Shown here: piece by piece, positions 28,101 through 58,033 of the stretch | How the letters are laid out: each line of letters opens with the position of its first letter | How positions within the stretch are numbered: the first letter of the stretch is position 1 | Assembly: GCA_002633005.1 (NCBI GenBank) | Contig: NMRA01000005.1 | Coordinates: 704,891 to 768,890 of the forward strand | DNA length: 64,000 bases | Reading direction: 5' to 3' | From: Phoronis australis | Lineage: Eukaryota; Animalia; Phoronida | Notes under the pieces: generated by a model | What the model was told of the DNA's origin: nothing | What the model saw: only the letters and a program-made list of their open reading frames with translations | The model's database searches: none | Program-made: the position numbers and the translations under genes

Positions 28101-28163
28101 TGTGTGGATTTACTTACAATACTTATATTTATAATAACAATAACAGAAATACTAACAAGTACA

Positions 28164-28190
28164 ACGACGACGACGACGACGACGACGACG
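28164..28190. repeat. (GAC)n microsatellite
   Basis: acgacgacg... run; source of the poly-V in ORF 27536-28276. Confidence 0.85.
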
Positions 28191-35487: not shown

Positions 35488-38400
35488 CTGAAACATAAAA
35501 ACCACTTGTTAACACATTTTAAATCATGTATTACCTTAATGTCAGATGTCTGTTGGTAATACATTGGAGAAACTTTTCAATGTGTCTACTGCTACACGTC
35601 AAGGGTAATTTTCAAGCCTTTAAGCAAGAGAACCCCCAACATTAACAGTCATGCGATGATAGTTCCTATTGTAAAACATTTAATAAAAAATGCTCGTAAA
35701 AACTCGCTCCTCCATCACTAACAGTTTCGGCCTAAGGCAGACAACTTGCGGTGTGACTAAGGGACAAATCCCATGATCAAGCACTGCTCACAACATTCGC
35801 TTAAGACACATAAGCGATCTAATGTTATGTATTGTTTGACTGCAACGCATCATATATTGGCATGACTAGTCGAATTTTGAAACTTAGACTTAATGAGCAT
35901 TCTAGGCTAAAAACAGTTCTGTTAATAGCCATGTGATAGATACCAGTCACGAAATTTTTACAATGTCAGAATTTTATATCACGATGCCTGTAAATTCCGT
36001 CTGTTTGGAAAATAAAGTTTTAAAATTTTAGAGCACAAACCCCAACTCAATAGAATGTCCTCATCCTATTATATCCAGCTATTCACACACTCTCTGTAAT
36101 TTCTTTCAAAAAAGTTCAAGCAAATAAATAAATATAAAAACAAAATTTCCTGCCATATGTTTTGCACGTGCGTATTCATTCTCTTGAAAATACAGCTCGG
36201 TGGAAATTGTGAAACGTCGAGTACTTGTAATAAAGAATTTTATAAAATCTTGATCGTCAATTTTATCCTAGTCCCAGCGTTCATTAAATCTGTCGACCTT
36301 ACCACAACGTACTGAGGCACACAGTTGTAGACATTTAACCTGTGTCCTTAGTAGACCGTCTGGCAACTATGAACAATTGGAGGTAAAGTTCGGAGATTAG
36401 ACCCTAGGACCTGATCACTCACAAACATTCAAGTTCCATTGGCCCAAAGATAACCCAGAGAGTGAAATCACATTGCTGGTCCCAGGGAATAACAGTCATC
36501 TCTTGTAGTCCAACACCGATTGGAACCACGAAACAAAATGCCAAAGCTGTCAAAATCTCCTTAAAGACGCAACAAATCGTGACTTTCTACAAAGGCGAAT
36601 TTCCTTTTCCAAACCAACATCATCACATTCTTACCTTTCATTTGAATTGAAATTGGCTATTGCTACGAACCTCACCCCCGGCTAGACACACTGCATTATT
36701 TGGTGGGTGAAACTTACCCACAACCCACTACAACAGGAAGTCAATGTTACTCTGAACTAGTAAATGACCTATCAGTTCTTCTCTAGCTTCTCATTTGAGT
36801 AAAGAACAATCTGTGAGACCAATTTAAAACAGAGCGGACCCTTTAAACTCACCTCTGAGAGATCATTAAAATTTTCAAGCTCTTTATTCCAACTTGTATA
36901 CAACTTGTAGTTTTCTGATTTGCTATAACTTTCTGGAAGATTCACATCTAAAACAATAACATAACCTTAAATAATGTATCGGACAAGGTATACAATAACA
37001 CCAGTCCTATTCTGGACAAAAATAATTGACAGATGACTTTTTCCTATTTTTCAAAGTCTGTCTTGTTACATATACTGAAATCTTCACAAAATGTTATTTT
37101 ATCATGTAAAAACCTAGGTATCAAAGACTTGCTCTTTTTGTTGAGAAATTATAGACAAAATCACAGTTCCCTTTACTGCCATATTGTGTGCTAAACAGGT
37201 GAAGAATCACCGGGGTACTATACTAGGGTAAAACTTCTCCAGTTTGGGACAATCTCTAGAGTTTGGGACAAGGAAACTCCTATAAGAATGAAGAATTTTT
37301 TGTTTTAGGAATTTGGGACAAGGGCCAATTTGGCCATATTTCTCAAATTTCAGTCATTTTCAACCTACAGAGTGGGCAGTTTTACCCTCTTTCCAATGAT
37401 TCTTGAATATGGGACGGCCAATATTGACTATTTCTAGAATTTGGGACAGGCTCGATCCTTGAGCAAGTCCCAAAATCGAGAATTGTTACTAACAGTACTT
37501 CAACTTTTCTAACTTTACTTATGGTCCAGTAAACAATTATCCTACCAACTACACAATCATTTGGTGTTGATCACATTAGTTTTAGGCCAAAACATGCGCA
37601 CAAACTTTAAAATTAGAGTGTAAGTAAACAAAAACATATTGATCAGACGTTTCAATCAGGTAACACAGGTGGAGAAATTGTAAATGCGCAGTCTGTTCTC
37701 CACCTGATTGAATAATGTGAACTTTTGCCTTGAGAATGCTTTATAGTGAATAATGTACAGTCTGTTCTCCACCCGATTGAATAATGTGAACTTTTGCCTT
37801 GAGAATGGTTTATAGTAAACAAACCAAAACGTAGGATCAATATGACTTTGTTTACTAACGCTAATTTTAAAGTTCATACATTTGGTGTAAACACCAACAA
37901 AGCAGGAACAACAACTAGGAGAGTGAATTTACTAAGTAAACATCGAAACACTTTCCACAAAAATGTTTAAGCTCATAGCCTTCAACCACAGTTTCTAATA
38001 TAGTAAGTTGACTATCTCCGTTACAGTGGCGGATCTACAGGGGGGGTTCAGGGGGTTTAAACCCCCCCCCTCGGGCCAGGACCCAAAAATTAAAAAAACA
38101 AAAAAAACAAAAGCGGCTCCAGCAAAACAAAAACGGCACCGCCAGCGTGTGTAAACCCCAAGTAAACCAACTTGGAAAAAATTGAGGGGGGGGGTTCACT
38201 CTGAAAATATAGTTTTTTGCGTTGTGAATTGCTGAGTCTTTGTGGCCCATCGGCAATACGCGCGGGGATTTATTGTGCGCGCGCTTCCGTCGACACTTCT
38301 GAAGTAGCCAAGCATTTTAGATGGATTCATCACTGAAAGAGCAGTTCTATAGCTGATTTCTTTAGGTAACTAGCTTCTTCACTCTAAGATATATTTTGAT

Positions 38401-41400
38401 TTGATTAGGGGAAATACTGCGGTGCCGCAACCCTGATATTCAGGCGAATTGACGTGCAACGTTTTTACCTCATCTGTCATGCCGTGTCATTCTATTACAC
38501 TCCACNGAGATGCAAATAGGTCCCGGGATGCTTCGTCAAGGTTTGAAGTAGTCCCTGATGGACGGATCAAATTTAGTTGCGCATGTAAGTCTTTTGAATG
38601 GACTTGGCATCCTCAAGGGTCTTAGTGTCAACTGAGCTGCGAAACGAGATGCTGACATTGTAGAGGCTTACAAGCTCATTGACACAGCAGTTGACGAAGT
38701 GCAAGCGTTGGGAACAAACATCGAAGATATCTGGGTAGAATGGTTCCAAGATGAGCAAATCATTGGATCCGATATACAAATTCCTCAGCAGTCTAGACAA
38801 CAGAAGGATAAGACTAACGTATGAGTAACCACTGGGGATTAAAATTTTAGAGAGAAGTTTTCAATTCAATTTTTTTGCATAGTACACTTTAGGTCTCGCG
38901 ACGGACCAGGCCAGCTTGATTTGTGTAGATGTTGAGTTTCAGTGTACTTCTGGTCCCTCGGCGAACTAGTCTTGTGATTTTTTTACCAAAGTGTGCTTTG
39001 TAAAACTATTTATCTCAGCCAGTACTGTTTGGTCCCGCGACAGATAGACTATTTTTATAGGGATAATAAGCACAGGTGTACTCTTGGTCTCGTGACGGAC
39101 CAGGTCAGCTTTTTGTGTACTCTCAGTGTACATCTGGTCCCTCTGCAAACTAGTCAAGTGTATCTTTTCACCACTGTGCACAGGATGTTTTGGTTTCGTG
39201 AAACTGTTTTCAGATAATTTGTTTCCCGATAGATTTGACGTTTTTCAATTGTTGTCAACGTGATTCAGCTTAATAAAGTGATACCTAATTATTTATTGTC
39301 GCTTTTAATAATAGACTATGAGTTGAGAACACCATCGTTCGCCAGTTTTTCTCGCAGCGAGACAGAACACATGTTTATTTCCGGACTAACAGTACAGATC
39401 TTCGTTCTTAAACAACTTGAGGCTGCTGTTACGCGATCATCTGATATTCAAGTTTTTACGCCTCGTCGGTGCTCCTTAATTATGCTCTTGAATATTTGGA
39501 AATTGTCTAAACCCCTGTATACACAACACACTTTTTCGTATACGACTTTTCGTATGCTAAAAAAGGTGTGTGTAAACAGATGTTCCAACAAAATTTTTGC
39601 TGGTGGCGTGACTCATACCCAGATGTGCACAATATGGTTTCACGAAACTTATGTGCCAAGTTCATGTGACGAAATCGAGAAGGGTTTTTAATTACCTTAA
39701 GAAAAACTCCAGAGACATGTTAAGTGCCAGAAACTTACCGGGATGTATGGAAATTTCACTATTTGGCTACAAAAACAAAAAAAATTCTTACACGGGAGGG
39801 GAAACCCCCCTCCCGACCTCCCCCCGCTCGGCGCCACGCGCCTAGGATTCGACCTTTGCGGGAATCCTAAACCCCCCCTTGCTGAAAACGTAGATCCGCC
39901 ACTGCGTTAGTCTCGACCACTGACTATTTCACACTTACAGCACATTGCATGCTTATTCAGAACCAGCTGCTTAAACTCCCTCAGTTGGTCCACGGTCGTC
40001 TTTTCCACCTTTTTGAAATCATCATCAGTGATGTAAACCCTTTTAGTGACGATGTCGTTCCTATCACGACTGTCCACAAAATCAACCAGGTGATCAATAA
40101 TTTCAGAGTGGCACTCATAAGCAAGATAAATATCTTCGCCTAAATGTTCACCCTTATAAGTTGGTTTTATCGAGAGATGGTGATGCAAGTACGACTTGAG
40201 GAAATTTAAGTCAATGAAACCATTGCTGACAATTCTCCTCTTATCTTCCTCACATTTGTGGCAAGTTTGTGATGTGCATGACTTGAGGCGGCTAGACAAG
40301 CAACTGACAAGAGCGTCAGAAAACACGCTGTGACAATCACCCGCAAAGCCACTTCTAGACTTTTCGCTCGCACCACACGAGGATATCTGTATTCCAGTTG
40401 TGCCTGAAGCCGTTAGATCGAAGGCGAACCCTTGTTTTGCTGCATAGCAGCAGTCGATAACAACCAAGACATCAGCAGGATGGTCCATTTGATGTAAGAC
40501 AGTCTTTAACTGCTCAGCCTTCAAGTGTTTCTCCCCGGTTAAGAATAAGCCTTGCTTAGAATCTCCATGCCCAGAGTAGAAGATAACCAACCTTCCCCTG
40601 CCTAATAGAGGAAAATTGGCATCCATCTTCTTTACCATGTCTTGTAGTGTCGTAACAATAGCATCTGAAGTCAAGTTTCCTTTTTGTTGGCAACATAATT
40701 TAACATTGCTTGGCCTAAAAACATAAAAGGCCATGAAAGTAAAATGAAGAACGTGCTGTATATAAAAACAGTTTGTGCAACAAAAAAGACAAAAAGTATG
40801 TATACTTCAGGGCATCATGAAAATGCCTAAAATTGCAAGGAATAATTTCTGGAAATCTCCACATTATTTTTAGCAATTCTAGGAGTGTTCATCATTACCT
40901 CATCCCGCACACAGCAGGATGTTGGAATATATTGCAAACTCGCTCGGCATCACGGTAAAACATATTCTTTGGATCAACAGTTTGATAGGTGTCGCCTCCA
41001 ATTGCAAGCAAGAACCAATTATCGTTACCTACAACAAATAAAGCAAGATCAATAAAAATTAATGGTATGTTGTCATCACAATTGTTACATTAAATTTGTA
41101 TTTTGCCCTTGTCAATGCCGACTTCTTAACCAAAGTGCTTTGGGGCTTAAAAGCATTACCCTATTCATCCAATCTTAAATTATAGTCGAATGAGCCAGCA
41201 ATTCAAGTCAAAGCGCCATTGTCAAATCCGCAATTTTAAGGACGACCAACCCCAATAAACTCTGAAGCGTTTTCTTGAATTGCCAATGAAACATAATAAC
41301 ATCAATCAATTTAATCAGAGTTTCAATTTTTTCAAACAGGCAAAATTTAATATAAAGTTTTTTGTTAAGATGTGATTTACGTTTTCTTGGCTGTGCACCG

Positions 41401-44400
41401 ACAAAATGGCTGCCAACTTTGAAAGCCAATTTGTATGAGGTTTTGAAAGCAGAAATACTCATTCGAATACGAACAAAGAATACGATTAATGAAAGGTTCA
41501 CACTTCTCAAAAAACTTGCAAAATGTCGTTTTGACGGTTTTACAGAGGGGAAAATTTGTGTTTCAAAACATATTATTCTGTACCGTGATCGGAACTACAT
41601 GTACTTACCAATGGGTGCACGATTGTATTCACCATGAGAAGGACAAAACACTGGATTTGCAAATCTGTTCACGAGACAACCTTTGCAGTAGAATATACAT
41701 TGGCTATCAGGGCAAACAGAGATGCCAACTGAAAAGTAAACAAACACCAGCAATGACAGCCATCAAATCATAGCATGTGAAGTAACTAAAACGCATCAAC
41801 ATATTAGACATCATCTTCCAATTTGATTTAGGACACCAAAAGACCGATTCTGTGACGAAACCATTACACATATCTATTTACAGTAAAAACAAAGAACAGT
41901 CATCATGGGTAGTAGTTAACTGATGTTAGGTTGGTTATTGAACAAAGAACCAGTTGGTCTGGGGTCATAAATGATACATCTAGTCATACACAACTCGGAT
42001 ACATTTTATTTGCCAACTATCCCATTGAAGAGAGGTTGCTCTAAATGAGATAGTCCTGATGAAAAAAGTGTCTGTAGCACATCTCCAACACCTTACCCCT
42101 GGGGTTCATTAAGCACGATATGCACGTTTCTTTGCAAGACTCCTCAAACAGTTTAAAGTCGTTCATCGTCATCAAATCCTAAAAACAGAAAGTTTCTGTT
42201 TAAATCCTGCAACTTTACCCCAAAAAGTGTGAAGGAGTTAAAAAACTTGATATATCTATGTAATAAACTTTTGCTGTTTGCATCAGCAGTCCAACAGTAC
42301 AAAATTATACAGTTAATGTGAGTAAACTTGAGCGTACAAGGTGAACAGAATAGTTATTCCCGCACTGATGACAAACCTAAGATCATTGCAGCTCCCTCTG
42401 TGATAAGTAGCAAGAATAAAACCAATTAGTGGGGAACTTCTATGAATAAGTCACCCTCTCATCGAATTTTTCTTGCAACATACTATTTTGAATCTGGAGT
42501 TAAAAACAATACAAAATGCTAACTTATCAAATGCAAATTAAATAAACATCCATTTGGACTATTAATCTAAACCCAGCACACAGAGGAAGTAAAATATGAA
42601 CCCCTTCTGCACTTCTGTAGACTGACAAACCTTTTGTAAACTTGCTAACCACTAAATTAAGTGAAAATTTTCATTGAAATGAAACAGCAAAAGTAAATTT
42701 AGTCTGGATCTATCCATGAAATTCACTGGTCAGAACATCATGTATACACATAATACGGCACCAATGGGCATATTACCTTCAGCACATTGCACAAATCAAC
42801 TGCAGTCTTCCGTTCCTGTGGAGGCTTCAAGCACCCAATGGCAGCATCCAAATATTTTTCACTCACCTTCCCCCACATGTTCTGCAAACAGACGAAAACG
42901 ACTCTATAGCATGCCTCCAAAGTCACAAAACAGCAACAAGAATAGGGGAAAAGCGAGCAATGTGCCCGCACTGTTAAAGACCTTTTTGCCACACAAAGGT
43001 AGCTTTTGTCTACATTTGACGCCTGTACTCTGAGTAGCTGTAGGGGCAAACGTGACCTATGGGCCAGTCCATTTTTGAGTACCAATTTGATGCCCGTTAT
43101 TCAAGGGAGATAACAAGTTCTCAAAATGCAGGCCACCCCATAAGTGATTACTGTTGTATGAGCCCATTCTACAAAGCGAATAAAGAAAGAAAACCATAAT
43201 TTATTTAAACCAAAATTAAGAAAAATTCATCAAAGAAGTCCTGTATGTTTTCATCTTTGTTTGGTCTTGAATTTTTCTTAATGCATTGCGCACGATTGTG
43301 TTAACAATTGTAAATAACTATAGCATTCTTATGTATCATATGTTGGTCATATCACGTGACCTACAGTTAGAAAAGATATAGTCCTGGGCCTCGGTCGGGA
43401 CTGAGATCTACTTACAATAACTAAAGGTCACATGATGTCACCAACATATGGAGGGTAAGAAGGCTAACAATTCTTACTTACATAACATCTATGCGCTGAC
43501 TTATATAACACCACAATAGGACAGATTGGCTCACCTTGCGGGCTACTTTCCAATTTCGATATTTATTTATCAACCTCAAAAATAATTTCAGGATTTTTTA
43601 AAGTTCTAATTTTATTGTACTACACTACAGACAAATACAACCACTGTTTTTTTTACAAATTAAAGTGTCTTACATGATTTTACAGGTTAATTTTATGTAG
43701 AAATCAAGCAAATTGAGTGATTAAAAATTTCTAACTACTTTTTAGAGAGATATCAGCAAATTGTCATTGAAAGATAGTTTCATTAAAATTTACAAAGAAA
43801 TATGTTGTGTTATGAATGTACCTTTTTTAAAAATGAAACTTTGACTTGAAAAAGATGGTAACGTCATAACAACAACACTTAAGTATAAAGTGTATTTTTA
43901 CAACCCTTGATCTTTCTTCTTTAAGAAAATAAAATTTACCTTTTAATGATTGACACAGTCTAGTTCTTCTGGTATTTGACTTTGAATTAACGTTACTTAA
44001 TCAGGTCCTACGTTATCTCGACTAACAGAACCTATCTGAATCTAACGGCAAATGAGTCCATTTGTCTTTCTCTGGACTTCACACGATAGGGGTTGCTCCA
44101 TCTTTCAATGAAGATACAAATTTAAAATATCTTAGTTTTGTAGAACACAGTTATCTAAGATAAGACTTTGTTTATAACAAGTCAAAATTAAGATGAATTT
44201 AAGACAATTCTTAAGTGAAGACGCTTTGTGGAACAAGCAGCACAATCATGACAAATCAAAGTTTTAAAATTTTTGTAAAAATAAACATGTCACCTTAAAG
44301 TGTTCATATCTCAAATGTAAGCTCATTGCCATTCTTTGATATTGTGGCGACACAATGAAATACACTTCATCGCCACCTGGTGATGGAGTACTTGGTGGTG

Positions 44401-47400
44401 AGAGTTCAACGTTCTCGAATCGCGATTTAATAACCAAATAGCATTTCCCAACATTTTGTAAATCCTTTGCGACCGAAATGTCACCAAATCATTGCATACC
44501 AATGCTGTATTCAAATAACTCATGCACAAATGTCCAATATCTAACAATGTCCGTGAATGAAAGCAATTGCATTTTGCCCGTCCATTTGAAAGGTGGTCTA
44601 GGGAACGTTGCTGTCGTGCTTTCAGAGACATAAGAATTGCATGTTGAATGTATGGAATTAGATACCTTGTCGACCCAGAGACTGAGTGCCTCTTTAATCA
44701 TCGTCCAGTCATTCTCACAGTCTTTGAGTACACGGTGAATATCGTCGATTGAATTTAAGGTCAACAAGCGCAGCATGACTGAAAAAGCAAGGCGAGTCCA
44801 AGATCTGAAATAACCACAGCGTACCAAACCCTTGCACAACTCTGCTACTGCAGCAACAATGATAAAAAAATTTCCAGTTTGAGACAATCTCTAAAATTTG
44901 AGACGCCGAAATTTAAGGTGAAATTGAATTTTTTCATTCTGAAGATCGAGACGTAGAAAAATTTTGGTGTTCATTGTATTTCTCAAATATTGGGACACTG
45001 AGAACCAGTTTGATGCCTGTTATTCAGTGGGGAAACTTGTTCTCAAAATTCGGGCACGTTATATCAGACTATTACCAGACACTGTGCATCACCAAAACTG
45101 CATTTGAATACTTAGGACACCAAACTTGCATACTTTTCAGTAAATTTGCAGATATCACATGTAGACCAAACATAAAAAATTTGAGCTTGTCAGCGTGTTA
45201 GCCTATTGGAACTGTGTTCAGCTGATACTTTTCCAACTAGTTTTTACTCACTTTAATACACTTAGTGATATGATAACCAAATTTTTAAAATTCAGAATGG
45301 TGGACAGCGTTTGCAGTAATGAAAAGATCCAATTAATCAATTAATAGGTTACTTACTGAAGTTATTAATAAATAATTACGTTTAATACATGCCGCAGTGG
45401 TAATATCTACCATGAATTGTGATAAGTCACTACAAAGAGCTCCATGCTTCAAAAGTTATCATCATTTCTTAAACCAAAAACATATTTACAAAAAGTGTGC
45501 CCATGAATCTGTACTGGACAATGTTTTGCACCTGACGACATGTTCTTAAGCATTCAAAAGAGTTTGAAATAATTATTCATTGCAAGCCTCTATAAACACG
45601 CACTACCATACTGTCTGTCAAAATATCTCAACGGGCAACATATGCGCATGAAAACAACTTGCAATACAAATTCAACATTCTTTGGAACAACGAGGTAGAA
45701 ATTCACAACAGCCTCTCGCGCTTTGTCATTTTGACAATATGTAATAGCTGTAGATAATCGACCAATCACAGAGAGAAGTCACTGCTTACAGCCCCGTGAT
45801 TCGTCAGTTATCTTTACAGTTGCTATATTAAGAATGAATTGGAGAAAGTTTTCCACTTAGGAGCTCACATTTTAGTTAGAATATAATGAAATGAATATAA
45901 TGAAATGAATATGTATTAATTTAATATAATGAAATGAATATGTATTTTCAATATTTCTAATCAGGCAGTAGGCACTTTCAACATTGTTAGAAACCGTGGC
46001 GTGTGAAATGAAAAAATAACAGCTTTTGAAATCATTTTTGACCAATACTGACAAGTTTTGTCATATGTGAGACACTTCAATATGTAAGAATGTCATATTT
46101 CACAGAGATAATGGGAGGATTACTTGTGTAACAGACTGACTACTAAGATGATCATTTTATAGGTGTTAGTTCTAAGATACACCTGTAGGTGGCTTTATCA
46201 ATCAATATGTTTACTACAAGTTGTTGCTGGTAAGTTCCATAAGCTGATCATACACCATCAGAACAGAAATACTTTTGTTCTCGAAATTGATAGGTCACGC
46301 TAGGTGACCAGGTATGACTATGTAAGGTATTCATGCACTTTGAAATTCTTCTAACTATAACAGTATAAAGATGATACTACAAAAGAAATCATCTGTCTAA
46401 GATGAATGATTTTTTTAAAGAAACATTCAAGGCATTATAACTTATAAGTACTTCAGTCAACCTACTAAGTCCAACAGAATACACGTCATGTCGTGGCCTG
46501 CTTTTTGCCATGTACTGCAAAGCCTCCGGGTCACTGTAAGCTTGATTGACAACAGATGAAACAGTGGCACACGATCTGTCATCATGAATGTGACAACTCC
46601 ATCCTAGATCACCCAGACGTACGTTCAGCTTCTCATCCAACAGGATGTTTCTTGGTGCTATATCCCGATGAACAATCTGTTTTCTAAAAATAATAACAGA
46701 CACTAATAACAATGACAATGAGTTTGACAAACCTTTATGAATTAATTAGTTTTGTTTTGTTTAGGCCAAGTAAATAAGAGCAGAACACTAATTAGTTGAA
46801 ACATCAAACATTTGACGAACTTGAACTGCAGCCTATAATTCAGTAGGAAAAGAATACACTGAAAGAAACGGCTACAAGAGAGATCCTATTTATTAGCATG
46901 GGATGAAGATGAGAGAACAGGAATACCCTTATAGGTTGGTTGCCTTACAAATTGCACTCCACTCATGGGAATCACCTGTAGATTGCACCTTACAAACCCT
47001 TTGCCTTTCCCATGTAATAAATCTAATCAGGTGGAAATAATTACAGGCACACTACTTTCTTAAGGAAACTTTCATGCTCAATTAACTCAGGCATGCATTT
47101 ATGAATAGGCTTGACTTGATGCTTGGCTGGGACATATCTTGCTCTCAACAGAATTATTTTGATGTTCTAAAGACCCTTTCATGTTGACTTAACTCCAGTG
47201 TGAGGGGAGGGGGAGCTTCGATGTAAACAGCGCAGTTAACTGGACTGTTCATACTGGCTTCGGTAGTTAATGACCATCAAAGCAAGCGGTTGGTGCCGCT
47301 GTCGTCATCGAAGTTATCACAAGGTAGTGTTGCACGCTAAGATTTTTTTCAGTGTTTCAATTTGGAAACATTTACATGTGCTAAGTGACATTAAACTTAT

Positions 47401-50400
47401 TTTTAAATCGATTGGTTGTTATTAGAGAAAAAAAAGTAGCAGTAGTGATGGCACTACCCTGTAACTGTTGACGATAACAGTGGCACCTGGCGATAACTCC
47501 GATTGGACCAAAGTTAAGCGTTCATACTGCACCGCAGCGTCAACGCTGCCATGTTAACTGGAGCTGTTAACTGGGATCCAGGACCGGAGTTAAGCGTTCA
47601 TACTGACCGCAACTCCCCAAACCATCGACGCATCGACATTGGTATGAAAGGCCCTTTAGAGACAATAGCACCCAGCTTAGTCTTGGTGTAGCAAGGTCTG
47701 TAAAGGCTATTCCAATGTCACGGCTATTTCAGGGTAACAAACAACCAAATGTACCAGCATAAACTCACTTTGAGGTGGTTTTGTTGTGAAGGTGACAAAC
47801 AGCTTGACAAAGTTGATAAGTGATTCTCAACCTCATCTCCACATCAATCTCCTGGCTGGCAATGAAACGTTCCAGTTCACCTTTGACCATGTAAGGGGAG
47901 ACAATTCTCCTGGGAGGTTGCTCACACATGGCAACCACGGGAAGAATGTAAGGGTGCTTCACATGTGCAGATTCTTTTTCCTGAGGAAGACAAAAGCCAA
48001 AAAGTTACATGTCGTGAACACATCCACTAAAACAAGAAACTGTAGGAACACCGCATTTATCCACCTTCACTCTTATCAGGCTTCTATTGCGAGTCAGCAT
48101 GAGTGAATAATTGGCTGATAAGCCACCTCTGGAACTACTTTTGGCTGAATGGATGACCAGGCCATAAAATGATAATTAGCCAAGACCAGTTACTATTATG
48201 CAACAAAGAATAATGTCTTGCATCACCTAGCCTTGGTGAAAAGCTGTATACTGTATTGGCTCAAACAAACGCTTAGAAAAATTCATTTCACGGGGAGGGG
48301 ACGCTTATTGTAGTGAGCCTACGGCAGTTGAAACCCGGTTTCCCAAACGGGTAAAATCGGAAGCTAGGATTCATCAAATTTACGCTCTGTGACGTATTTG
48401 TAGCCTATGACAGCCTTTCTACAAAATTGTGGTGCATTGCTATCAACTTCCGTTGTTAAATTACGATAATTTTTCAAAAAATTGTGCTCATCACAGGGCG
48501 AAAACTTGCCGACTGATGCGTCGCTGAATCGCGATCGTCAATAGGAAAACTTGTACTCTTGAATAAAAATATAGTTTCGACTCAACAAATTACCTGAAAT
48601 CTTCCTGATGTTTTACAATTTTTAAAGTTCCTGTGGAGTCCAGATTAATTGCGATTAAGTCCAAATGTGCGCTACATCGTACTCCACAACACGAGAAAAA
48701 TCTCTGGATGAACACACATGTTGTTGTCACGTGACGTTTGTTTTGAAGGTCGTCTGCGTATGAGAGTGAGTGAGCGTGCGTGTGCGGGTCATCGACGATA
48801 GACTTTTTTGTTACAAAAGGCGGAGGATTATGCAAGAAAATGGCGTTTACTAGATTGTTTTTCACTTAAACGGCTGTAACGTGCAAGGTGAGTGCGCTCG
48901 CAGAGTCACATCTCGGAAGTTTCCGGTTTGACGGATGACAAAGAACGATCTCAATGAAATTACACAAAGTCGTTTTAGAGCTTGTAATAGCTATACAAAA
49001 CGTATTTTGAGTATTAAAATGCATTTTTTCCAAAACCTAAATAACACACGGAGTAGTTCTACATTTATACAATCCTAACTTGGGTCCTATATTTTTGTAT
49101 TCGTGCGCGCCGAATGAAAGTAATCGTGAGTGTTTCTGTGTTGCAAAATCTCTTATCCTGGGCCGATTTGAAAAATTCAAAGTTGTATTCGTATTTGTTT
49201 TCGCTCCTCTTTTCAAATATTACAGTAAAAACTACGTAAAATTCTCTCCATAAAAAGTACAGTTGTTAGGCTAGACTGTAATCAGCTGATCATATCCGCA
49301 TGAGCGAAGCCAATTATCCTCGCTCGTGACTCGATGACTAGAGCAGCTTGGCGGCATCCCTTTGATCGTGAGCCGAGTGCGACTCAGCCAAGGTGGATAA
49401 ATACGGTCTACTTCAATTTTCCATACCCCGCCGTTTACCTTAACCACTGGGGTTAGAACCAATCTTATTTAGTGGGAATGTTCATAGCATGTAAGTGGCA
49501 GGAAAGAAGGGGGCGGGGGGGTAATGAGAAAAGTTATTAGGCAAAACTTATGCCGTCACAGATTGAAGTGAGCTAGACGCAGTGGACTTAGCTGAATGCA
49601 TTGGATGAGAAAATAGGGGTCATAAACCAACACACCTGTTTAGCGTATGAGTTTCAAAGACAAAAAGCAAACAATAAGTAATGCAAGGTCACTTCCTTAA
49701 CATCGTGCCACATGCTGACATCACACTTAGTTGAAGACAATCCCACACACGAGTCATGTCATTGAAATCATGTCTCAACGTGAGGCCTTTAGATACCTCA
49801 AAAAGGATGCCAGACTGCAGCGACTGTTGCTACAGAGGACATAACTACACTTGCGTTTCACATCAACTAACTAAAGTTGTTGCCAGTTTATGATGTCCGT
49901 TGGCGAGAATCCACTAGATATGTCCGTTGGCGAGAATCCACTAAATTTGTCTATTACGTTCTAACATGACTTCTCACTGAGGACGTTTAACCTTGACCTT
50001 TCCCCTTTAGGTCTTACCATAGTGAACTGTTTGCCACTTCGACGACTTCCAGTGTCATTCCATTCCGTTTTCACAACAACTTCCAACTGTCTGAACTTCT
50101 CGCGAGCTGCATTATTAAATGAATAAAAACTATGAGTTGACAAATTAAGGTTCTTTTAAATCAGATGTGTATTGAAAGTTAGAAATGTACTGTCTTTTAG
50201 AATGCTTGCTATAAGTAGAATGTTGAAGTCCTCATTTTTGAAAGTAAAATTCTTGGGGAAAACAGCATTCTACAGAAAATCTCGCTACTGTGTATTTAAT
50301 ACTAAATGGCTTCGGTATAATTTTCAGTAACAATATGTTTAATTCATGAAATTAAAAAATTACTGGTTAGTAACAAAATTACACACATTTTACAATGGTA

Positions 50401-53400
50401 GAGCAAACTATGAAAATTAAAGCCATGTCTTCTAGTCAAAACTATAGAGTGTGCTGAAGGATAAGGGCAATGCATTATGGGAAGTGCTTCAGTTGTGATT
50501 ATTGCCTGCTTGTTGTACTGGTGAAGTGCATGGATTTAACAGGTGTGAATGAAATAATTGCAGTTGCAAGAGCGCACGGATGTTTAAAAGAACTACACAG
50601 TCCTCAATATGATGGCATGCCGTGCTGAGCGAGGATATTGAGAAAGAAACCTCAGTATACACTAGTCATTCCCAAAAAAAACAATTAATTTCATCAAAAA
50701 CAGACACTCGCAGCACGAATAAAAATGTTCATTCAAGGTTTCATCAGGATAACTGACCTATCGTCAGGATTTTGAGTGACGGCTTAACTGACCAATCAGA
50801 ACACATCATTCTGGACACACCTTTGTTTCCAAGCCACCATTTTTCCCCGACAAACAACACGTTGCCGGGTAAAACTTGTTTGTTTGTCGGCATTACGCAA
50901 GGGGGCAAAGCTTGCGATTGGTCAATTATATATAATAAGACAGCAAGTGTCGACATTCCAGTCAGGTAACATCCATGTAGTGAAATGAGAGTAGCAAGAG
51001 ATACAGGTAGGTCATCACCACAGTTTCAGGGTCACTGAGCTCTGCATGTTATTCAGAGAATCAGTAGCATGCTGGTCCTGAATGGCCAATGACTCTTTAA
51101 TGTGCAGTAATTCCTGTACAGGTTCTCTACAGATAACACTAACTGATTTGGCTTGGTTATTGTTGCTAACACAATGCCTATAGACGTTGCTTTTGTCTGA
51201 GGTGTGATGTTCATTCAGTCTGTCACAGAGGCATCTCTGTGCGAGTCCGAAACAGAATTCCTTGCAGTTGTCACATTCAACCTTATATACAACATTACTT
51301 TTATTTAATAAAGGGATAGGTGACTTCAGTTTACACAGTCAGCATATTTGAAAGTTTACACGAACCACATAGACGGAACGTTGAACAAACATGAACTTTT
51401 TTATTTATGCAGCGATTGTTAATCTTACTATGGCCAAAAACTGATGTAATTTCACCTGTTCAGATTCTGAAGACGCTTTTAATGAAGAATATGCATCCAT
51501 AAAGAAAGTTTTTTGCTTTCAAAAGTTTGCGAGTTTGTTTGGACAAGGCTTAGATGTATAAATGAGACGAGCAAAAAAGCATGTCTTTTCAGTTTTAGTT
51601 TTATGCAGTTTATGGCATAGTGAATGGTTGGAAATGTGCAATATTATTGAAATAACTACCTTTTCAGAATCGACACAGCCTGTGCATTGTAACGGACTGA
51701 ATTATATGTTTCAGTATGCGGAATACATTATACAATTCAGACGTACAGATGTATTTATCTGATCACAATTTTTGTCTTGCATTATGTACATTTCTGTACA
51801 TAGTAATTCGAGTAGAGACCATAAGACTAGAAAATGTGAGACCGCCAAGCATGGGAAACTAGCACCGGCATGAACGATATTGGCTACAGGGGTCATCTTC
51901 CCAACTTGTTGTTGGGCTATAGAATTGAGCAAGTTGGGAGCAACGGGAAAACCCCGTAATGGGGGGGAGGACTTCAACAGTTTTGTGCACTGAAGGACAC
52001 ACCTGCGCTATGAACTTTGCGAACGCCACAACAAAATTGTGACGTTGTCTTAAAAACATGCTCAAACTTGAATAATGACTAGGTCACTTCTAGCAGGCCA
52101 TTGCTTTTTCGGTTGGAGTCGGCTAGACGGACAAAAATTTGTGATCTAAGCAATATTAGAAATAACTCAAAATAAAACAAATTACAACCCAATACTTAGA
52201 AAAAAATCTCCTTTAACTTTTAAGTATATCAATTTGATCTTTGTCGTCATTTTTGCAAGACAGGTACAACTCCAAAATCATTATGTACATAAAATCATGG
52301 CTATCCACTTTAAGCCACTACAAAACATGGAATGGAGACAATTGCTCCAGAGACAAACCTTTTAGTACTTTCCCATAGTCACCTTCCCCTACAACTGTTG
52401 TGGTAACTCCAATGTCTCGGTCAAACGTGGCTTTGTCCAACAGATAAAAAGCTTGCCACTTTTCACCAGGAAATGGTGCGGCAACGTGTTTGCTGTGAAA
52501 ATATATTACACTTTGTAAGAAATTCCATGATGGCCATACGAACTTTCACACCTAATGATTCCACAATTATCGGAAAAACCATTTGCTGATTGCTTAAAAA
52601 CATTCAATAACAAAGCAGACCCAAACACTAGCAACTTATCAGACTACAATCATATTTTCAACGTATACTTTAATTATCGCGTACTTCCATTGCTAAGGAT
52701 CAAATTTGTAGGTAAATCTTTGAATAGACTGATGCTTATATTCCAAGATCGATGTAACTGCCACGAGCACGCATGTTTTTCCACAAACACAAACAATCAA
52801 ACTGAAACTGCAGTGACAACATTTAAAATTTTAAACAGCTCGCCTCAAAAATAATAATAACTGATTAAGACCTCACTAACTTCTGACGCAATGCCCACAT
52901 TACCTGATTTTTGAAATGTCATTGGTAGGGGAGGTGGGTGGTCTACTCTCCATAGCATGTACATGCCTTGCCAAAGACCCTAGGGAACTAGCGCCCCCTA
53001 CAAAATGGAATAGTGAAAGAAAATCAGCAATTAGCTCAACTAAAGCTTGCAACAGATTACATCTTCAACCTTCGGTATTCCACTCCAAAAGGCAAACGAA
53101 AGCAGAAACAAATTTTAATTAAAATTTCAAATTCTAAGTGTCACCTTAAGGATTTTACCTTCTGTCACTCTCACAACTTGCTTAGGTTTACGAGACTTCG
53201 TGTTTGAGCCATGACCCTGCAACAAAGACCAACACGCTGACAACAAGTGCTTCACATAATTTTTACCACAAATGGGATCAGATAACAAACAACTGTATCT
53301 CTACTGTTCACCTTTCAAGTTCATCATCAAAAATCTCACCTGTTTCCAAACAATGAACATTACTTCACTTTTTGTAAAATAATGAATTTCCAAGGTAGAA

Positions 53401-56400
53401 AATGAACTTCAAGGCAAACACCTGGGGTTTTCTGTCTTTTATAAGTGTCTATGGTCATAAACCTTGCAATAGGATCACAGCATGACAACAGTTAAGCCAG
53501 TGAAAAGCCACTTCTAACCTTACACAACATTACAAATATCTCTCATTTTGTTTCAACTCCAAATGCCAGCAGGTTTCCAAATCCAGATATCAATTTAGTC
53601 CATCGATTATAATACAATACCAGATATTAACTATAGTGGCAGGCTTTTGGAAATTAAGAAAATGGTGGGCTCTTGTTCAAGAAGAATTCTTACTGTTTTA
53701 GGTAAAATACCCGTGGTTAAGACACTTTTATTGCCCAAGATTGTTCATTTGCTTCAATCCCTCCCTAACCCCTCCATTGACATGACTCAAGAATTAGAGC
53801 GAGTTTTTTTGGCTTCATTTGGAATAGGAAGAATGACAGAGTTAGCTGAAATGAAATTGTACAAAATCAGGATAATGGTGGTTTAAGAATGGTTCATGTT
53901 CGTTTTTTATTAAGTCTTTGAAAATATCGTGGCTTCGTAAACTATTCACCTCAAATACCATACGTGACCTTGCAGAGGCAGTTTTGGGTAGCAATGTACG
54001 GTTGATAACTTTTTTAAAATGAGGGACACTTTCTTCCAAAAAATACATGAAGGAACAGAGAATCTGTTCTGGAAGCAAGTTTTAAGCGATGTTGTGCTCC
54101 TGTTTCAAATGTATGACAAAAATGAAAATATTATTTACTCTCCCCTATGGTATATAATTCAAAGATTAAAGTCGGTAGAAAATCTATTTTCTACAAGACC
54201 TGGTATTAAAGGGAAGTCTATCGTGTGTGTGATTTGTTTAATGCTGAAGGTTCTTTTGTGTCATACAAAGAACTCTGTAACAGTTATAACTTTCAACCTC
54301 CAATACTAGAATTCTATGGATTAAGAAGTGCAACCTTTGCAGCGTACAGGGGTCTTAAGAATAGACAAGAAAATATCTTTTTACCAAGTTTTCCAAGTTA
54401 TATTTAAAAAATTTTGCATAAATCACAAGCGGTAAATATTTGTAACACCTTAGTACAGACACTTCAGACAGCTTGTAAATATAAAAACGAGTGGTCACCT
54501 GAGATAGATATAAACATTGTTATAAATAATGTAAATTTTAGTGAACCTGATACATGGTGGAGAAAAGTAAATAAACTCCCCTTCAATTGTACAAAAGATA
54601 CAAAATTCAATTTCTTTCAATACTGCTCAGTTCACAGAATATTGCCAACCAATAATTAGTTGCATAAAACTGAAATAAAAACAAGTGATTTATGCTCTTT
54701 CTGTGGTGAACACAGTGAAACTTTTATCCTTCCGTTTTGGGAATGTCGTCTCGTCTCCGCTTTCTGGCTCCTGTTTACTGAACAGTTAAAACAAACGTAT
54801 CATGTAAATTTTCATGTGGACAAAATAACGATGTTTTTCGCTTTTTTGGAAAACACTCGGTCGGAAAATAATAACATTAATCTGTTGATCATACTAGCAA
54901 AAAATTACATATTTACCCAAAAATTTGCTAAAAACTCTCAATTTCCAAATGTTTGTAAACTTTATTAAGGTTACATCCTGAAGAAAATACGATACTTGTT
55001 GACTAGTGATTTAATGTTATTCTTTGTAAACGATGTATACTGTATTGCTTTATGTGACATGTGAATTATCATGCTAGAGTAATATAAAAATTTAGTCCAT
55101 CGTAAAGTGTTGATACAGGTCTTTTGTTTGCCATCAAGACTTTCACACCACTAACGTACCACAATTCAAAGAGTGACTAAGACTCAGTTTAGGTGAAACC
55201 TCTTGACTGTAAATACTGGTTAACATTCAAAGGCTTTTTCAGCAAATTTTTATCATATTTTTCTCACATTCCAAACAGATCCCAAAATCACAACAAAGAG
55301 TCTCAGAATTAACGACACTAGTGGTTCTAGTACTAACTTGTAAATCTTCTGACAAAGTACAAAGTGCCGCAAAACTGGTCAAATTTTTAATGAACTAGTT
55401 ATATACTGTAAGAAGCCTTAATCATAAAATGTATGGCAAAATCTCACAAATTTCGGACACAATTTGGGGGACACTATTTTTTCATTAAATGAAACACAGG
55501 AACAAAATCTGCTGGTTTGCCTGATCCAACTTTTGTACCACAGCTACTGAGAACAGACAATGTTTTATACAAAACTAAGGAGATTTCACTGCAGTTAAAC
55601 AAAATAAAACAGGTTTAGAGCAGTTTTTGAGGGACATCATAAAGCCTCTGAGAACATGGACAAATAATATCAGTTACCTTTATCTCCTGGAGTTTACTTT
55701 CAAGGAGTTCTGCTTCATCACGATAGTCAGCTTTACGGAGAAGTTTCAAGAATTCCGGCCAGTACCGAATTCTCATGGAAAAGTTTGCTGATAAAAGGTT
55801 TTCCATAGCCCGAGTATTCCCGTAATTTGTATACGCACACTCCAACTGTTCCTGTTATTTAAAATATTGGTCATGATGACTGACATGAAAATTCTGTTTA
55901 ATGCAGAATATGAAATTTCACAGAAATGAAAGTCTACCCAGACATACTACTATAAGCCTAGAGAAATCACATCTTTAAACAATACCATGACGGCGTTTTC
56001 CCGTTGCTCCCAACTTGTTTGATTCTATAGCCCAACAACAAGTTGGGAAGATGACCCCTGTAGCCAATATCTTACATGACTGATTAACTCCATTAGTTCG
56101 ATAATTGCTCTAATCTTCAGTAAGATCCTATCTAGCCTACCTTGGCTGTGCTGTTAAAAATAAAAGTTAGGTTATAATCTATTTGAACATAAACCAATAA
56201 CATTTCTGAAATCCTTATCAAATGATGATCATTTTTAGTTTTTGAATCGCCAAAATCACCCAACTACAACGGTTACCGAAGTTACGACAATCTATTCTTT
56301 CCGAACGGGCCAATTCGTTCTGGGTTTGACTGTGTTCACACATGGTCTGCAATAAGCCTGGTAGATAATTGGCCTGCTTGTTGTCATAACAGACAAAAGA

Positions 56401-58033
56401 CTGTGCTTGGCAGTTAACAAAGGAGCTAGATGTTATCCCACCGTCACAACCCTCTACGTCTGGTGAAGTCACTGAATGCGGGAAAACGCCGTCATGAATT
56501 TAAATGGCGTACTTATTTAGGTGATTTAAGTGATATAGGACCCTAGAAAAATGAACAAATTTGACCAACTTTGAACATTATATCTCAGAGATGAGTGATA
56601 AGATTCTTATGACAGTTTGGTAAACTATGCTTTGTGTACGCTCTCCAAACATGGACTGTTATGATTTTCATGAAAAAGAAATCAGGCAGCATGAAACGAA
56701 AACAAAATGGTAATTTAGAAAACTGTATCAGCATTTTCAAGATTTCATTTTAACATTGAATATCACAAACATTTTCAAGTCTGGTCTGCACACCACCTGT
56801 TGGCCACATCACGTGAATTAATGAAGATGAGTCTGAAAAGATTTCTGCCTCCGGCCCGGCGGACTCGAACGCAGGACCTTCTGCTATCTGTGCAGACGCT
56901 CTTAGCGTGCAGGTGGTATGCAAACCAAACTTAAAAATGTTTGTGATACGTTATATTCTTGTTTACTTTAGTTTGACTTTTATGACTTATTACAAACATT
57001 TTTACATTTGGTCTGCACACAACCTGTTGGCCACACCATGTGGCCTGATAATGTGGCCAACAGGTGGCGTGCAGACCAGACTTAAAAATTTTTGTGACCT
57101 ACATTTCCACTCTGGTTCCATAATTTAGACATTTAACATATTAAACAAAATTTGGTCATGATACTGGTACCATGGTTTTGCTATCAATGCACCTTCCTTT
57201 TTGCTAGATTTAACTAAAAAATACACTGTCACATGACCCAATTCAGTAGTGTCAGATTGATAAAAAGTCAAACATCAAATTTTACAGGAAGGCTTTCTAC
57301 TCGAGTCAAATAAAACTTTTACTGAGTTAAAGAAGCTTTGAACATAATACTCGACTATCTTCTCATTTCTAATCCTGAAAAATGGCTCGAAAGACTCTCT
57401 CACCAACATCAATGTGTTCAGGGGTGTGTCTGTTGTTGTGAAAACTTAAATTCTGTCTTGGTGTGAAGGAAAAATTGTTTCATGAAAAGTGAAATTTAAG
57501 ATGAGAGAGACTCCAAAAACTGACTTAAGTTTGCAAAAACATGCAGACATAACAAGGGATCATCTATGCTTCGATGAGATGTCAAAAATGGACTTTGATA
57601 TCATCAAACTCATAAGCATTTGTCAGTATCAAAATGGCTTATGTTGACACTTCACATGTAACAAGTAAAGTGATCCCAGCGCCACCTAGCAATGAACTTT
57701 AGTCGCCATAGTGTCACCCACCTTTAAATCCGATGTTATTTATATACCGAAGCTGATGTACTGGTTCAAGTTATCATCGCATTTTAGTTCAAATGACACT
57801 ATTCTCAGAGTTAACGTGGTGAAAATGGGGCTAAAACTGACAGGACAGTACAACTGAGATCTGCTTCAAACAGTGAACAAACTATATGATCCCTGGAACA
57901 AATAACTTACTACTTCACTTCGGGACAAGTGAATATCATCCTCCAGGTAACACTTGATGTTACAAAAAGTGATTCTTGAAGTAAGCTTACGGGTACACTG
58001 CCTAAGAGCTTTTCTTCTCAAGTCATCCTCCAT
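35431..58033 (-). CDS. Multidomain protein: CARD + IRAK/Pelle-like protein kinase + RING-like Zn finger + metacaspase-like (peptidase C14) domain + unknown C-terminal domain, 859 aa
   Basis: 16 coding exons (minus): 58033-57911, 55851-55678, 53216-53159, 52997-52904, 52492-52359, 50106-50018, 47980-47769, 46683-46466, 44778-44666, 42881-42777, 42178-42097, 41728-41609, 41028-40899, 40714-39939, 36947-36853, 35487-35431. Total 2580 nt; every junction is GT-AG and phase compatible, with no internal stop. Kinase motifs appear in order: GEGDYGKV, VVVK, E, HPYIL, HRDIAPRN, DLG, YSDPE, DVYSVG, C..PPQER. Protease motifs: YSGHG and IDCCY. Confidence 0.85.
36853..36947 (-). CDS. CARD-kinase-caspase gene exon 15
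   Basis: YVNLPESYSKSENYKLYTSWNKELENFNDLSE; gttttag / gtgagt; phase 1 to 0. Confidence 0.75.
37689..37817. repeat. 69-bp tandem duplication
   Basis: cagtctgttctccacc..gattgaataatgtgaacttttgccttgagaatg at 37689 and 37758. Confidence 0.85.
38024..39904 (+). mobile_element. Non-autonomous hAT-family DNA transposon, copy 1 (intronic)
   Basis: TIR cagtggcggatctac / gtagatccgccactg; 5-bp TSD cgtta (38019-38023 and 39905-39909); transposase remnant near 38510-38830: LKGLSV..KRDADIVEAYKLID...TNIEDIWVEWFQ...IQIPQQSRQQKDKTNV, resembling PRKRIR/ZMYM-type hAT transposases. Confidence 0.85.
39939..40714 (-). CDS. CARD-kinase-caspase gene exon 14 (metacaspase-like catalytic core, 776 bp)
   Basis: LVIFYSGHG...VLVVIDCCYAA...IQISSCGASEKS...HSVFSDALVSCL; ttttag / gtaagt. 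Confidence 0.92.
40899..41028 (-). CDS. CARD-kinase-caspase gene exon 13 (caspase-fold first strand and helix)
   Basis: NDNWFLLAIGGDTYQTVDPKNMFYRDAERVCNIFQHPAVCGM; ttgtag / gtaatg. Confidence 0.85.
41609..41728 (-). CDS. CARD-kinase-caspase gene exon 12 (RING-like finger)
   Basis: VGISVCPDSQCIFYCKGCLVNRFANPVFCPSHGEYNRAPI; tttcag / gtaagt. Confidence 0.85.
42097..42178 (-). CDS. CARD-kinase-caspase gene exon 11 (start of RING-like finger)
   Basis: DLMTMNDFKLFEESCKETCISCLMNPR; ttttag / gtaagg. Confidence 0.82.
42777..42881 (-). CDS. CARD-kinase-caspase gene exon 10 (kinase subdomain XI)
   Basis: NMWGKVSEKYLDAAIGCLKPPQERKTAVDLCNVLK; ttgcag / gtaata. Confidence 0.82.
44666..44778 (-). CDS. CARD-kinase-caspase gene exon 9 (kinase subdomains IX-X)
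   Basis: IMLRLLTLNSIDDIHRVLKDCENDW...WVDK continues DVYSVGL; tttcag / gtatct. Confidence 0.82.
46466..46683 (-). CDS. CARD-kinase-caspase gene exon 8 (catalytic loop, activation segment)
   Basis: IVHRDIAPRNILLDEKLNVRLGDLGWS...QAYSDPE...HDVYSVGL; ttttag / gtaggt. Confidence 0.92.
47769..47980 (-). CDS. CARD-kinase-caspase gene exon 7 (kinase subdomains III-VIa)
   Basis: EKESAHVKHPYILPVVAMC...SPYMVKGEL...MRLRITYQLCQAVCHLH; cctcag / gtgagt. Confidence 0.9.
50018..50106 (-). CDS. CARD-kinase-caspase gene exon 6 (kinase VAIK-equivalent lysine)
   Basis: AREKFRQLEVVVKTEWNDTGSRRSGKQFTM; atgcag / gtaaga. Confidence 0.85.
52359..52492 (-). CDS. CARD-kinase-caspase gene exon 5 (kinase Gly-rich loop)
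   Basis: ...TTTVVGEGDYGKVLK; tcacag / gtttgt. Confidence 0.88.
52904..52997 (-). CDS. CARD-kinase-caspase gene exon 4 (linker)
   Basis: GASSLGSLARHVHAMESRPPTSPTNDISKI; ttgtag / gtaatg; phase 1 to 2. Confidence 0.65.
53159..53216 (-). CDS. CARD-kinase-caspase gene exon 3 (linker)
   Basis: GHGSNTKSRKPKQVVRVTE; ttgcag / gtaaaa; phase 0 to 1. Confidence 0.65.
53606..55088 (+). mobile_element. 5'-truncated L1/Tx1-clade LINE with 14-bp TSD, antisense in the intron after coding exon 2 of the kinase gene
   Basis: TSD aatttagtccatcg at 53592-53605 and 55089-55102; frameshifted ORF2 C-terminus (SRRILTVLGKI.VVKTLLLPK; HRILPTN; LCSFCGEHSET). Confidence 0.88.
55678..55851 (-). CDS. CARD-kinase-caspase gene exon 2 (CARD C-terminal half)
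   Basis: EQLECAYTNYGNTRAMENLLSANFSMRIRYWPEFLKLLRKADYRDEAELLE. Confidence 0.85.
55986..56496. mobile_element. MITE with 18-bp perfect TIRs
   Basis: catgacggcgttttcccg ... cgggaaaacgccgtcatg; related inverted fragment near 51869-51950. Confidence 0.7.
56851..56906 (-). mobile_element. tRNA-derived SINE head fragment
   Basis: Minus strand agagcgtctgcacagatagcagaaggtcctgcgttcgagtcc; B-box GTTCGAGTCC. Confidence 0.45.
57911..58033 (-). CDS. CARD-kinase-caspase gene exon 1 (CARD N-terminal half)
   Basis: MEDDLRRKALRQCTRKLTSRITFCNIKCYLEDDIHLSRSEV; exon starts at 58040 after ctttcag; gtaagt donor. Confidence 0.8.

Follow-up and report, generated by a model that had tools for sequence, protein, structure and literature searches.

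An expressed gene of the phoronid Phoronis australis joining a CARD-like domain, an IRAK/RIPK-like kinase and a putative C14 protease domain of non-caspase kind

The DNA examined here is a stretch of 64,000 nucleotides (nt) from Phoronis australis, referred to below as the window, and all coordinates are positions within it. Its minus strand carries a gene whose product is composed, in this order, of a CARD-like domain, a protein kinase, a Cys/His-rich module, and a Peptidase_C14 (C14) domain, the last encoded by two exons termed A and B. RNA evidence came from three RNA sequencing runs of the same species (X5, X6, and X7) mapped to 38600-58500 and 39850-44800, and exonic reads were found almost solely in the orientation of minus-strand RNA. 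The GT..AG junctions listed from these reads join 57911 to 55851, 55678 to 53216, 47769 to 46683, 46466 to 44778, 44666 to 42881, 42777 to 42178, and 41609 to 41028. Since this minus-strand chain, from 57911 to 41028, was read in the three runs, the upstream exons and the C14 exons belong to one gene, which extends beyond the C14 exons because reads of run X6 leave exon B at 39939 and enter a further exon at 36947. The features of the gene are listed below, with expectation values given as E.

57911..58033, minus strand: first coding exon, Met at 58033; open reading frame (ORF) with ATG, encoding the N-terminal 41 residues of the CARD-like death-fold domain; donor 57911 joined to 55851 by 6, 3, and 7 reads in the three runs
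55678..55851, minus strand: second coding exon, remainder of the CARD-like domain; both junctions in RNA, that with 53216 by 3, 2, and 8 reads
52321..53216, minus strand: region with the next exon (acceptor 53216) and the kinase N-lobe exon (GEGDYGKV), from ORF translation; inner borders not fixed
47769..47989, minus strand: kinase exon, hinge/C-helix region; upper border approximate; Pfam PK_Tyr_Ser-Thr E 3e-7; tblastn with homologue P0009 covers 47989-47768 (E 3.8e-11); donor 47769 joined to 46683 by 5, 2, and 14 reads
46466..46683, minus strand: kinase exon of 218 bp with HRDIAPRN, DLG, and SDPE; Pfam Pkinase E 1.7e-14; both junctions in RNA
44666..44778, minus strand: kinase C-lobe exon, 113 bp; junctions of 44778 with 46466 and of 42881 with 44666 in RNA; frame checked
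42777..42881, minus strand: end-of-kinase exon, 105 bp; junctions in RNA; frame checked
42097..42178, minus strand: exon of 82 bp with the first Cys pair of the Cys-rich module; acceptor 42178 in RNA; donor GTAAGG at 42096 placed from sequence, frame, and depth
41609..41728, minus strand: exon of 120 bp with the remainder of the Cys/His module (CPDSQCIFYCKGC...CPSHG); acceptor inferred; tblastn with P0009 and P0008 matches 41708-41598; donor 41609 joined to acceptor 41028 by 11 reads (3, 2, and 6 in the three runs)
40899..41028, minus strand: exon A, 130 bp, C14 first strand and helix 1 (FLLAIGGD, FYRDAERV); aligns with the domain start in homologues
40715..40898, minus strand: intron within the C14 domain, 184 bp, GTAATG...TTTTAG; GC content 0.31
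39939..40714, minus strand: exon B, 776 bp, rest of the C14 domain (His49, Asp87, Cys89, C146/C151/C154, last strand IYLAY) plus about 60 residues
36853..36947, minus strand: coding exon after exon B; lower border inferred (GTGAGT at 36852); frame kept

Exon B was covered by minus-strand RNA at a depth of about 2-15, and in the bin 40680-40845, at the intron between exons A and B, depth was 0.27, 0, and 0.62 in the three runs. The junction of the two exons is placed by its canonical sites, the kept frame, this drop in depth, and a gap-free fit to homologues; unspliced, the exon B motifs lie in a minus-strand stop-to-stop frame from 40806 to 39907, and the exon A motifs in a second, short frame upstream. 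At donor 39939, 12 reads of run X6 run on into letters exactly matching 36918-36947. The borders at 41028 and 39939 that the first-pass annotation had set proved to be a real acceptor and a real donor, and exon A ends at 40899 and not at 40898, the donor GT being 40898-40897. Read-through of exon B to the TAA at 39909-39907 was considered as the main 3' end and was dropped because of the 12 X6 reads spliced at 39939; this stop may come into use, although only where the 39939-36947 intron is kept, and such read-through is possible in runs X5 and X7. Bacterial contamination or misassembly was dropped as well, as the C14 exons are spliced to animal-type exons, and the earlier proposal that the domain sits in an animal gene is borne out by its transcription and splicing. 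In run X7, four linked differences at exon B positions 40557, 40651, 40653, and 40666 occur in 4 of 10-18 reads, and could be those of an allele or of a close paralogue.

The motifs of the C14 domain were found where the first-pass annotation had reported them on the minus strand. Exon A carries FLLAIG (41014-40997) and RDAE (40954-40943), and exon B carries YSGHG (40578-40564; His codon 40569-40567) and IDCCYA (40458-40441; second Cys codon 40449-40447), together with ISSC (40386-40375), SEKS (40368-40357), and HSVFSDAL (40332-40309); QACxG is absent from the domain. The ORF 39907-40806 matched the Pfam family Peptidase_C14 (PF00656) with 25.9 bits against a cut-off of 21.4 (E 9.6e-6). In the numbering of the exon B translation (P0001), residues G48, H49, D87, and C89 were invariant in 83 of 83 alignment rows, all animal members included, and G50 was kept in at least 90% of them. 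This invariance points to the exon B His and Cys as the catalytic pair of the family. It bears equally on the idea that the domain is a non-catalytic pseudo-protease serving the kinase only as a scaffold or dimerisation module, which is unlikely, since the invariance of the His, the Cys, the Gly before the His, and the Asp before the Cys across 83 rows is the pattern of active enzymes. The idea draws on the activity of the window domain being predicted from sequence alone, and on pseudo-enzymes being common in the superfamily, for instance c-FLIP (Z 10.1 in the structural comparison below) and the pseudo-orthocaspases described in parts of PMC6426788, where a metacaspase with a role independent of its catalytic residues is also cited.

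A cluster of three cysteines, C146/C151/C154 (C-x4-C-x2-C, 40278-40252), is inserted between helices 4 and 5 of the domain. C151 and C154 are kept in at least 90% of the family profile (A1; 11 rows, 257 positions), and the cluster is a mark of the present C14 subfamily. For neither the last 120 residues of exon B nor the exon at 36947 did the domain library search give a family match. No second copy of the C14 domain was found in the window by tblastn, nor any match downstream of 39900 when homologues were used as tblastn queries.

Comparison of profile A1 with all PDB sequences returned 17 matches at E<=10. Ten of these are metacaspase sequences (E 3.1e-11 to 1.7e-5), including C. glabrata MCA1 (3.1e-11), AtMC9 (2.1e-8), AtMC4 (1.6e-7), Yca1 (5.9e-7), and TbMCA2 (about 1e-5); the others are four GPI transamidase sequences, the bacterial protein GSU0716, and two chance rows, and neither a caspase nor MALT1 is among the 17. 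Against 5.8 billion proteins of 23-592 amino acids (aa), the same profile gave 185 matches, headed by two metagenomic proteins of the same subtype and followed by bacterial caspase-family proteins fused to TIR, EAD1, or EAD7 (70-88 bits, 19-29% identity), with canonical fungal type I metacaspases at about 52 bits and solved metacaspases at 46 bits. The fungal protein P0106 was confirmed as a canonical metacaspase by its match to Yca1 (5e-106). The sole NCBIfam match was the bacterial family caspase_w_EACC1 (NF047832), with 26.5 bits against a cut-off of 140.

The part of the domain encoded by exon B (210 residues) was modelled with AlphaFold from the 83-row alignment, with a predicted local distance difference test score (pLDDT) of 83.5 and a predicted template modelling score (pTM) of 0.83; a single-sequence model (pLDDT 42.5) was not used. 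In a VIA-align comparison of the model with 48,161 chains, the top 24 (Z>=8.6) were all clan CD or Raptor/CHAT caspase-like domains, and Foldseek agreed on clan CD. In this alpha/beta fold the His follows strand 3 and the Cys follows strand 4. The Z scores of clan CD matches were 14.3 for legumain, 14.1 for OaAEP1, 13.4 for AtMC4, 13.3 for AtMC9, 12.9 for GPI8, 12.3 for GSU0716, 12.0 for caspase-3, 11.8 for caspase-8, 11.7 for caspase-9, 11.2 for MALT1, 10.8 for Yca1, and 8.6 for TbMCA2. The clan CD fold of the window domain can, on the basis of this model, be regarded as certain.

The matches to caspase-3, -8, and -9 and to MALT1 are what a true caspase or MALT1-type paracaspase diverged past easy recognition would give, and both groups typically have a death-fold domain in their chain, as here; MALT1, according to the part of PMC4357240 that treats it, also has D-x-C. 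Such an identity is nevertheless very improbable, as the window domain has no QACxG and no flanking Ig or DD domains, and the profile matches in the PDB at E<=10 include ten metacaspase sequences and neither of these groups. The structural scores contribute less, AtMC4 and AtMC9 being higher by only 1-2 units and Yca1 and TbMCA2 lying below MALT1. Judged by its sequence profile, the C14 domain is of the metacaspase and bacterial-caspase kind and not a caspase, in agreement with the class to which it had been assigned from its motifs.

Two acidic positions bear on the specificity of the predicted enzyme. An Asp stands two residues ahead of the Cys in 83 of 83 rows, and the Asp of RDA in helix 1 is retained in 6 of the 7 rows covering that position. 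The HMMER profile alignment pairs the RDA, SGHG, and D-x-C region with NDA, SGHG, and D-x-C of metacaspase-1. In sections of McLuskey and Mottram (PMC4357240), the S1 residues are given as Cys92, Asp95, Ser156, and Asp211 for TbMCA2, and as Asp365, Asp462, and Glu500 for MALT1, and from these and sections of PMC6426788 the two acidic positions of the window domain correspond to Asp95 and Asp211 of TbMCA2. On the ground of this correspondence, a basic P1 residue (Arg or Lys) is a fair prediction for the window C14 domain. The first-pass annotation had pointed to the same two residues, and their conservation and their match to TbMCA2 uphold it in this respect; as a sign of metacaspase kinship D-x-C does not serve, since MALT1 also has both acidic positions and the motif cannot separate metacaspases from paracaspases.

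The N-terminal domain of the product has 99 residues and resembles Pfam CARD_2 (E 1.5e-4 to 5.5e-4). It is followed by the kinase, which has the catalytic motifs HRDIAPRN, DLG, and SDPE in the exon 46683-46466; the kinase of homologue P0009 is most similar to plant RLK/Pelle kinases, followed by IRAK4 (1e-23) and RIPK2 (5e-20). The Cys/His module, C-x3-C-x2-C ... C-x4-C-x3-C-x2-C ... C-x2-H, extends over two small exons (42178-41609), with exon A directly next to it, and no Pfam family was found for it. With its eight ligands and its CPxHG ending, the module is common to the hemichordate and mussel proteins described below, as is the Cys cluster of the C14 domain, and both may be zinc sites.

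A single-sequence HMMER scan of 1,835,955,588 representatives gave 11 proteins at E<=1e-3, the best with E 5.2e-9 and 33% identity. Seven of the 11 could be assigned to organisms, namely the hemichordates Saccoglossus kowalevskii and Glandiceps talaboti, and the unionid mussels Potamilus streckersoni (two proteins) and Sinanodonta woodiana (three). Single-sequence searches with exon B found no relatives among proteins of near or longer lengths in a word-indexed set of 5.8 billion, and only two chance CinA rows (E 0.26-0.42) among PDB sequences; Rfam and PADLOC gave no match, and the ESM Atlas gave only leads, at 0.91, to C14 clusters of bacteria and viruses, a value that shuffled proteins can also attain. 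When Pfam was applied to 14 family proteins, C14 exceeded its cut-off in 11 and occurred together with Pkinase in 5, while Pkinase alone was found in 2 further proteins, both still alignable over the C14 domain. DED was present in 2 of the 14 (E 4e-18 and 7.7e-24), with two copies in the Glandiceps protein, and no Ig or Death domain was matched by Pfam in the 14 homologues. Several relatives have the order DED, kinase, Cys module, and C14, with DED at the place of the CARD-like domain of the window protein.

By tblastn with five long homologues, the kinase exons, the Cys-module exon, and exon B of the window were matched in the same order. The order death-fold domain, kinase, Cys module, and C14 domain is, from these alignments, common to one deuterostome and one protostome phylum, so that the fusion is read as old and not as a recent insertion. 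All named members of the family are annotated as 'hypothetical' or 'uncharacterized', and the literature searches, which covered paracaspase surveys incompletely, found no description of this architecture. Three ORF-type predictions from other animal assemblies (P0002, P0003, and P0007) begin within about 16 residues of the start of exon B, which hints, as far as predicted starts can, that relatives share the intron separating helix 1 from strand 2. Three metagenomic proteins (P0010, P0016, and P0135), encoded on contigs of 1.4-10 kb, represent a 699-residue, Lys/Asn-rich protein with the same Cys-cluster C14 subtype and an unrelated N-terminal region; this type is the nearest sequence outside named animals.

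The first-pass annotation had proposed that the C14 domain was added late, by retroposition or transfer into this lineage. It had noted the contrast in exon size, which stands (776 bp for exon B versus 82-218 bp for the other delimited exons), and a dispersed repeat does end 34 nt downstream of the exon B donor. The proposal itself did not survive and is now barely credible. The domain is split by the 184-bp intron, another exon is joined to the donor of exon B, no second copy lies in the window, and the kinase, Cys module, and C14 domain already stand together in hemichordate and bivalve relatives whose C14 domains are about 24-28% identical to that of the window. Nor does composition set exon B apart, as its GC content (0.43) and that of its third codon positions (GC3, 0.46) equal those of the other exons (GC 0.41-0.48), the introns having 0.31-0.40.

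An older transfer is a different matter. The C14 domain may have come from bacteria into an early animal (bilaterian or older), or have spread between marine invertebrates, and then have been fused to a death-fold kinase, the donor being a compact caspase-family protein of a conflict system. This scenario concerns origin only and is compatible with the reading of the gene given below; it can be put forward tentatively, with somewhat more to be said against it than for it. The top scores outside the family, at 70-88 bits, are those of the bacterial caspase proteins with TIR or EAD, above the fungal and the solved metacaspases, but these higher scores may reflect only the lack of the long metacaspase insert. 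A quick IQ-TREE analysis (83 rows, 328 columns, unrooted, without caspases and paracaspases) grouped the window protein with the hemichordate and mussel proteins and P0007, with a Shimodaira-Hasegawa-like approximate likelihood ratio test (SH-aLRT) value of 93, then with P0003/P0011 (89) and P0010/P0016 (85). In the free tree this family joined a clade of 32 rows, bacterial as far as its members are named (SH-aLRT 79.6). However, that node is unsupported in an unrooted tree, organism names are available for only a minority of the 83 rows, and a constrained tree placing the family with fungal type I metacaspases was not rejected (approximately unbiased test, p-AU 0.636) and had a log-likelihood 6.1 higher, so the tree cannot decide between a bacterial and a fungal-metacaspase sister group. 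The patchy named distribution, in two hemichordates and two unionids, would fit transfer, and lateral spread of immune genes among marine invertebrates is raised in a portion of Kaur et al. 2021 (PMC8195603); by contrast, composition and introns are fully host-like. An ancient bacterial origin of the C14 domain is no more than possible.

Taken together, the locus is probably best read as a gene for a CARD-like domain, an IRAK/RIPK-like kinase, a Cys/His module, and a non-caspase C14 domain that is predicted to be active and to cut after Arg or Lys, with a family in hemichordates and unionids. Sequence features, splicing and expression, the family with its common architecture, and the fold were obtained directly; from these we infer catalysis, P1 preference, the mode of activation, and the pathway. 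The architecture, with its N-terminal death-fold adaptor, its kinase, and a C14 domain whose dyad is intact, suggests a scheme in which the death-fold domain would recruit the protein to an oligomeric signalling platform, where crowding would switch on both kinase and protease. The protease could then act in innate immune or cell-death signalling by cutting substrates, or its own chain, after basic residues. The analogy would be with MALT1 of the CARD-Bcl10-MALT1 complex and an IRAK/RIPK-type kinase placed in one chain.

Several points weigh against this reading or confine parts of it. RNA coverage is thin (depth about 1-15). Splicing of 39939 to 36947 reaches the listing threshold in one of the three runs (X6; not X5 or X7), and reads over the junction of exons A and B stay below that threshold at a depth of about 1-3. 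Neither this junction nor the borders of the kinase N-lobe exons nor the 3' end of the gene is settled by reads. The CARD_2 match, at 22.2 bits, is below its cut-off of 28.2, and the CARD-like exon had no match among PDB sequences. The modelled chain lacks exon A, and with it strand 1 and helix 1, and the Z scores of metacaspases differ from those of legumain and the caspases by at most about 1-3 units, a gap from which structure cannot classify the subfamily. The acidic S1 positions, being present in MALT1 too, favour a basic P1 and not metacaspase membership. By eye, SGHG is followed by DSKQGLFLTGEKH, without an acidic run as in the calcium site of metacaspases. The calcium-binding aspartates of TbMCA2 are Asp173, 189, 190, and 220. 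Catalysis, finally, is predicted from the conserved dyad, and such a dyad is no proof of proteolysis.

The C14 proteases of animals are generally divided into caspases and paracaspases. Metacaspases are described in part of PMC4357240 as 'notably absent' from animals. The window gene is an animal one that is expressed and has relatives in two distant phyla, and its C14 domain is nearest to metacaspases and bacterial caspase homologues. If this domain is active, the protein would add a new node, protease and kinase in one, to innate immunity or cell death in invertebrates, and would offer a useful comparison for the emergence of MALT1-like and RIPK-like signalling. A bolder and distinctly more doubtful proposal is that the family forms a third, so far overlooked bilaterian branch of C14 proteases beside caspases and paracaspases, of metacaspase/orthocaspase type, Arg/Lys-specific, and derived from bacterial conflict-system caspases, and that its fusion with a death-fold adaptor and an IRAK/RIPK-like kinase would let a single chain phosphorylate as well as cleave on an immune platform.

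Other features of the window lie around and within the gene. Inverted repeat copies of about 1.85 kb, 92-97% complementary, at 38092-39905 and about 61454-63947, bracket the region from the CARD exon to exon B, the end of the repeat at 39904/39905 being 2 nt away from the read-through stop and 34 nt downstream of the donor of exon B. RNA reads map to this repeat on both strands with mixed flanking letters, which indicates that it has many genomic copies. On the minus strand, the ORFs 21272-21697 and 23154-23564 encode VWA (E 6.2e-28) and a sub-threshold chitin-binding Peritrophin-A domain (CBM_14), and are probably part of a neighbouring extracellular-matrix gene. A retroelement fragment with zf-RVT (E 9.9e-9) and two further ORFs occupy 27539-28297 (minus strand), 32239-32724 (plus strand), and 51015-51338 (minus strand); the two further ORFs resemble, by eye, the GIY-YIG endonuclease modules of Penelope-like elements, and one of these two lies in a kinase intron. 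Intronic RNA pile-ups at 44999-45054, 47117-47712, and 48008-49400 reach a bin-mean depth of up to about 100 with many loose ends, and an odd joint from 47117 to 47678 with 33 extra letters was read 30, 40, and 91 times in the three runs. These pile-ups look like transcripts of repeat copies elsewhere.

Compared with known systems, the window domain shares with metacaspases (MEROPS C14B; Yca1, TbMCA2, AtMC4, AtMC9, and C. glabrata MCA1) the SGHG and D-x-C motifs, the Asp of helix 1, and (Q/E)-x-S after strand 5. Metacaspases also give its best profile matches among solved structures and share the clan CD fold (Z 13.4-8.6), and a basic P1 is predicted for it on the same grounds. Unlike metacaspases, it is compact, without the long insert between the two halves (alignments with metacaspases need inserts of 50-100 residues), it has the Cys cluster between helices 4 and 5, and the acidic stretch of the calcium site looks, by eye, to be absent. 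The protein has no Pro/Gln-rich or LSD1-type prodomain, and its C14 domain is C-terminal of a kinase. With bacterial caspase-family (orthocaspase-like) proteins the domain has in common the compact form without the metacaspase insert, and these proteins give the top profile scores outside the family. Their fusion to signalling or adaptor domains (TIR, EAD1, and EAD7), treated in part of PMC8195603, is a counterpart of the death-fold adaptor. The window gene differs from them in its eukaryotic partners (a CARD-like domain or DED, and an IRAK/RIPK-like kinase) and its spliceosomal introns, and identity is 19-29%.

MALT1, the type 1 paracaspase, offers a working analogy in its combination of a death-fold adaptor with an Arg-specific C14 protease that operates within a complex for immune signalling, and has D-x-C and the Asp of helix 1 as described in sections of PMC4357240, with a similar fold (Z 11.2). 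Unlike MALT1, which was not among the A1 matches at E<=10, the window gene has neither Ig domains nor DD, and carries its kinase in the same chain. We know of no IRAK or RIPK with a protease domain. The window gene resembles these proteins in joining a death-fold domain to a kinase of the RLK/Pelle-IRAK-RIPK group, and departs from them in adding a protease domain and in having a CARD-like domain or DED as its N-terminal death-fold domain.

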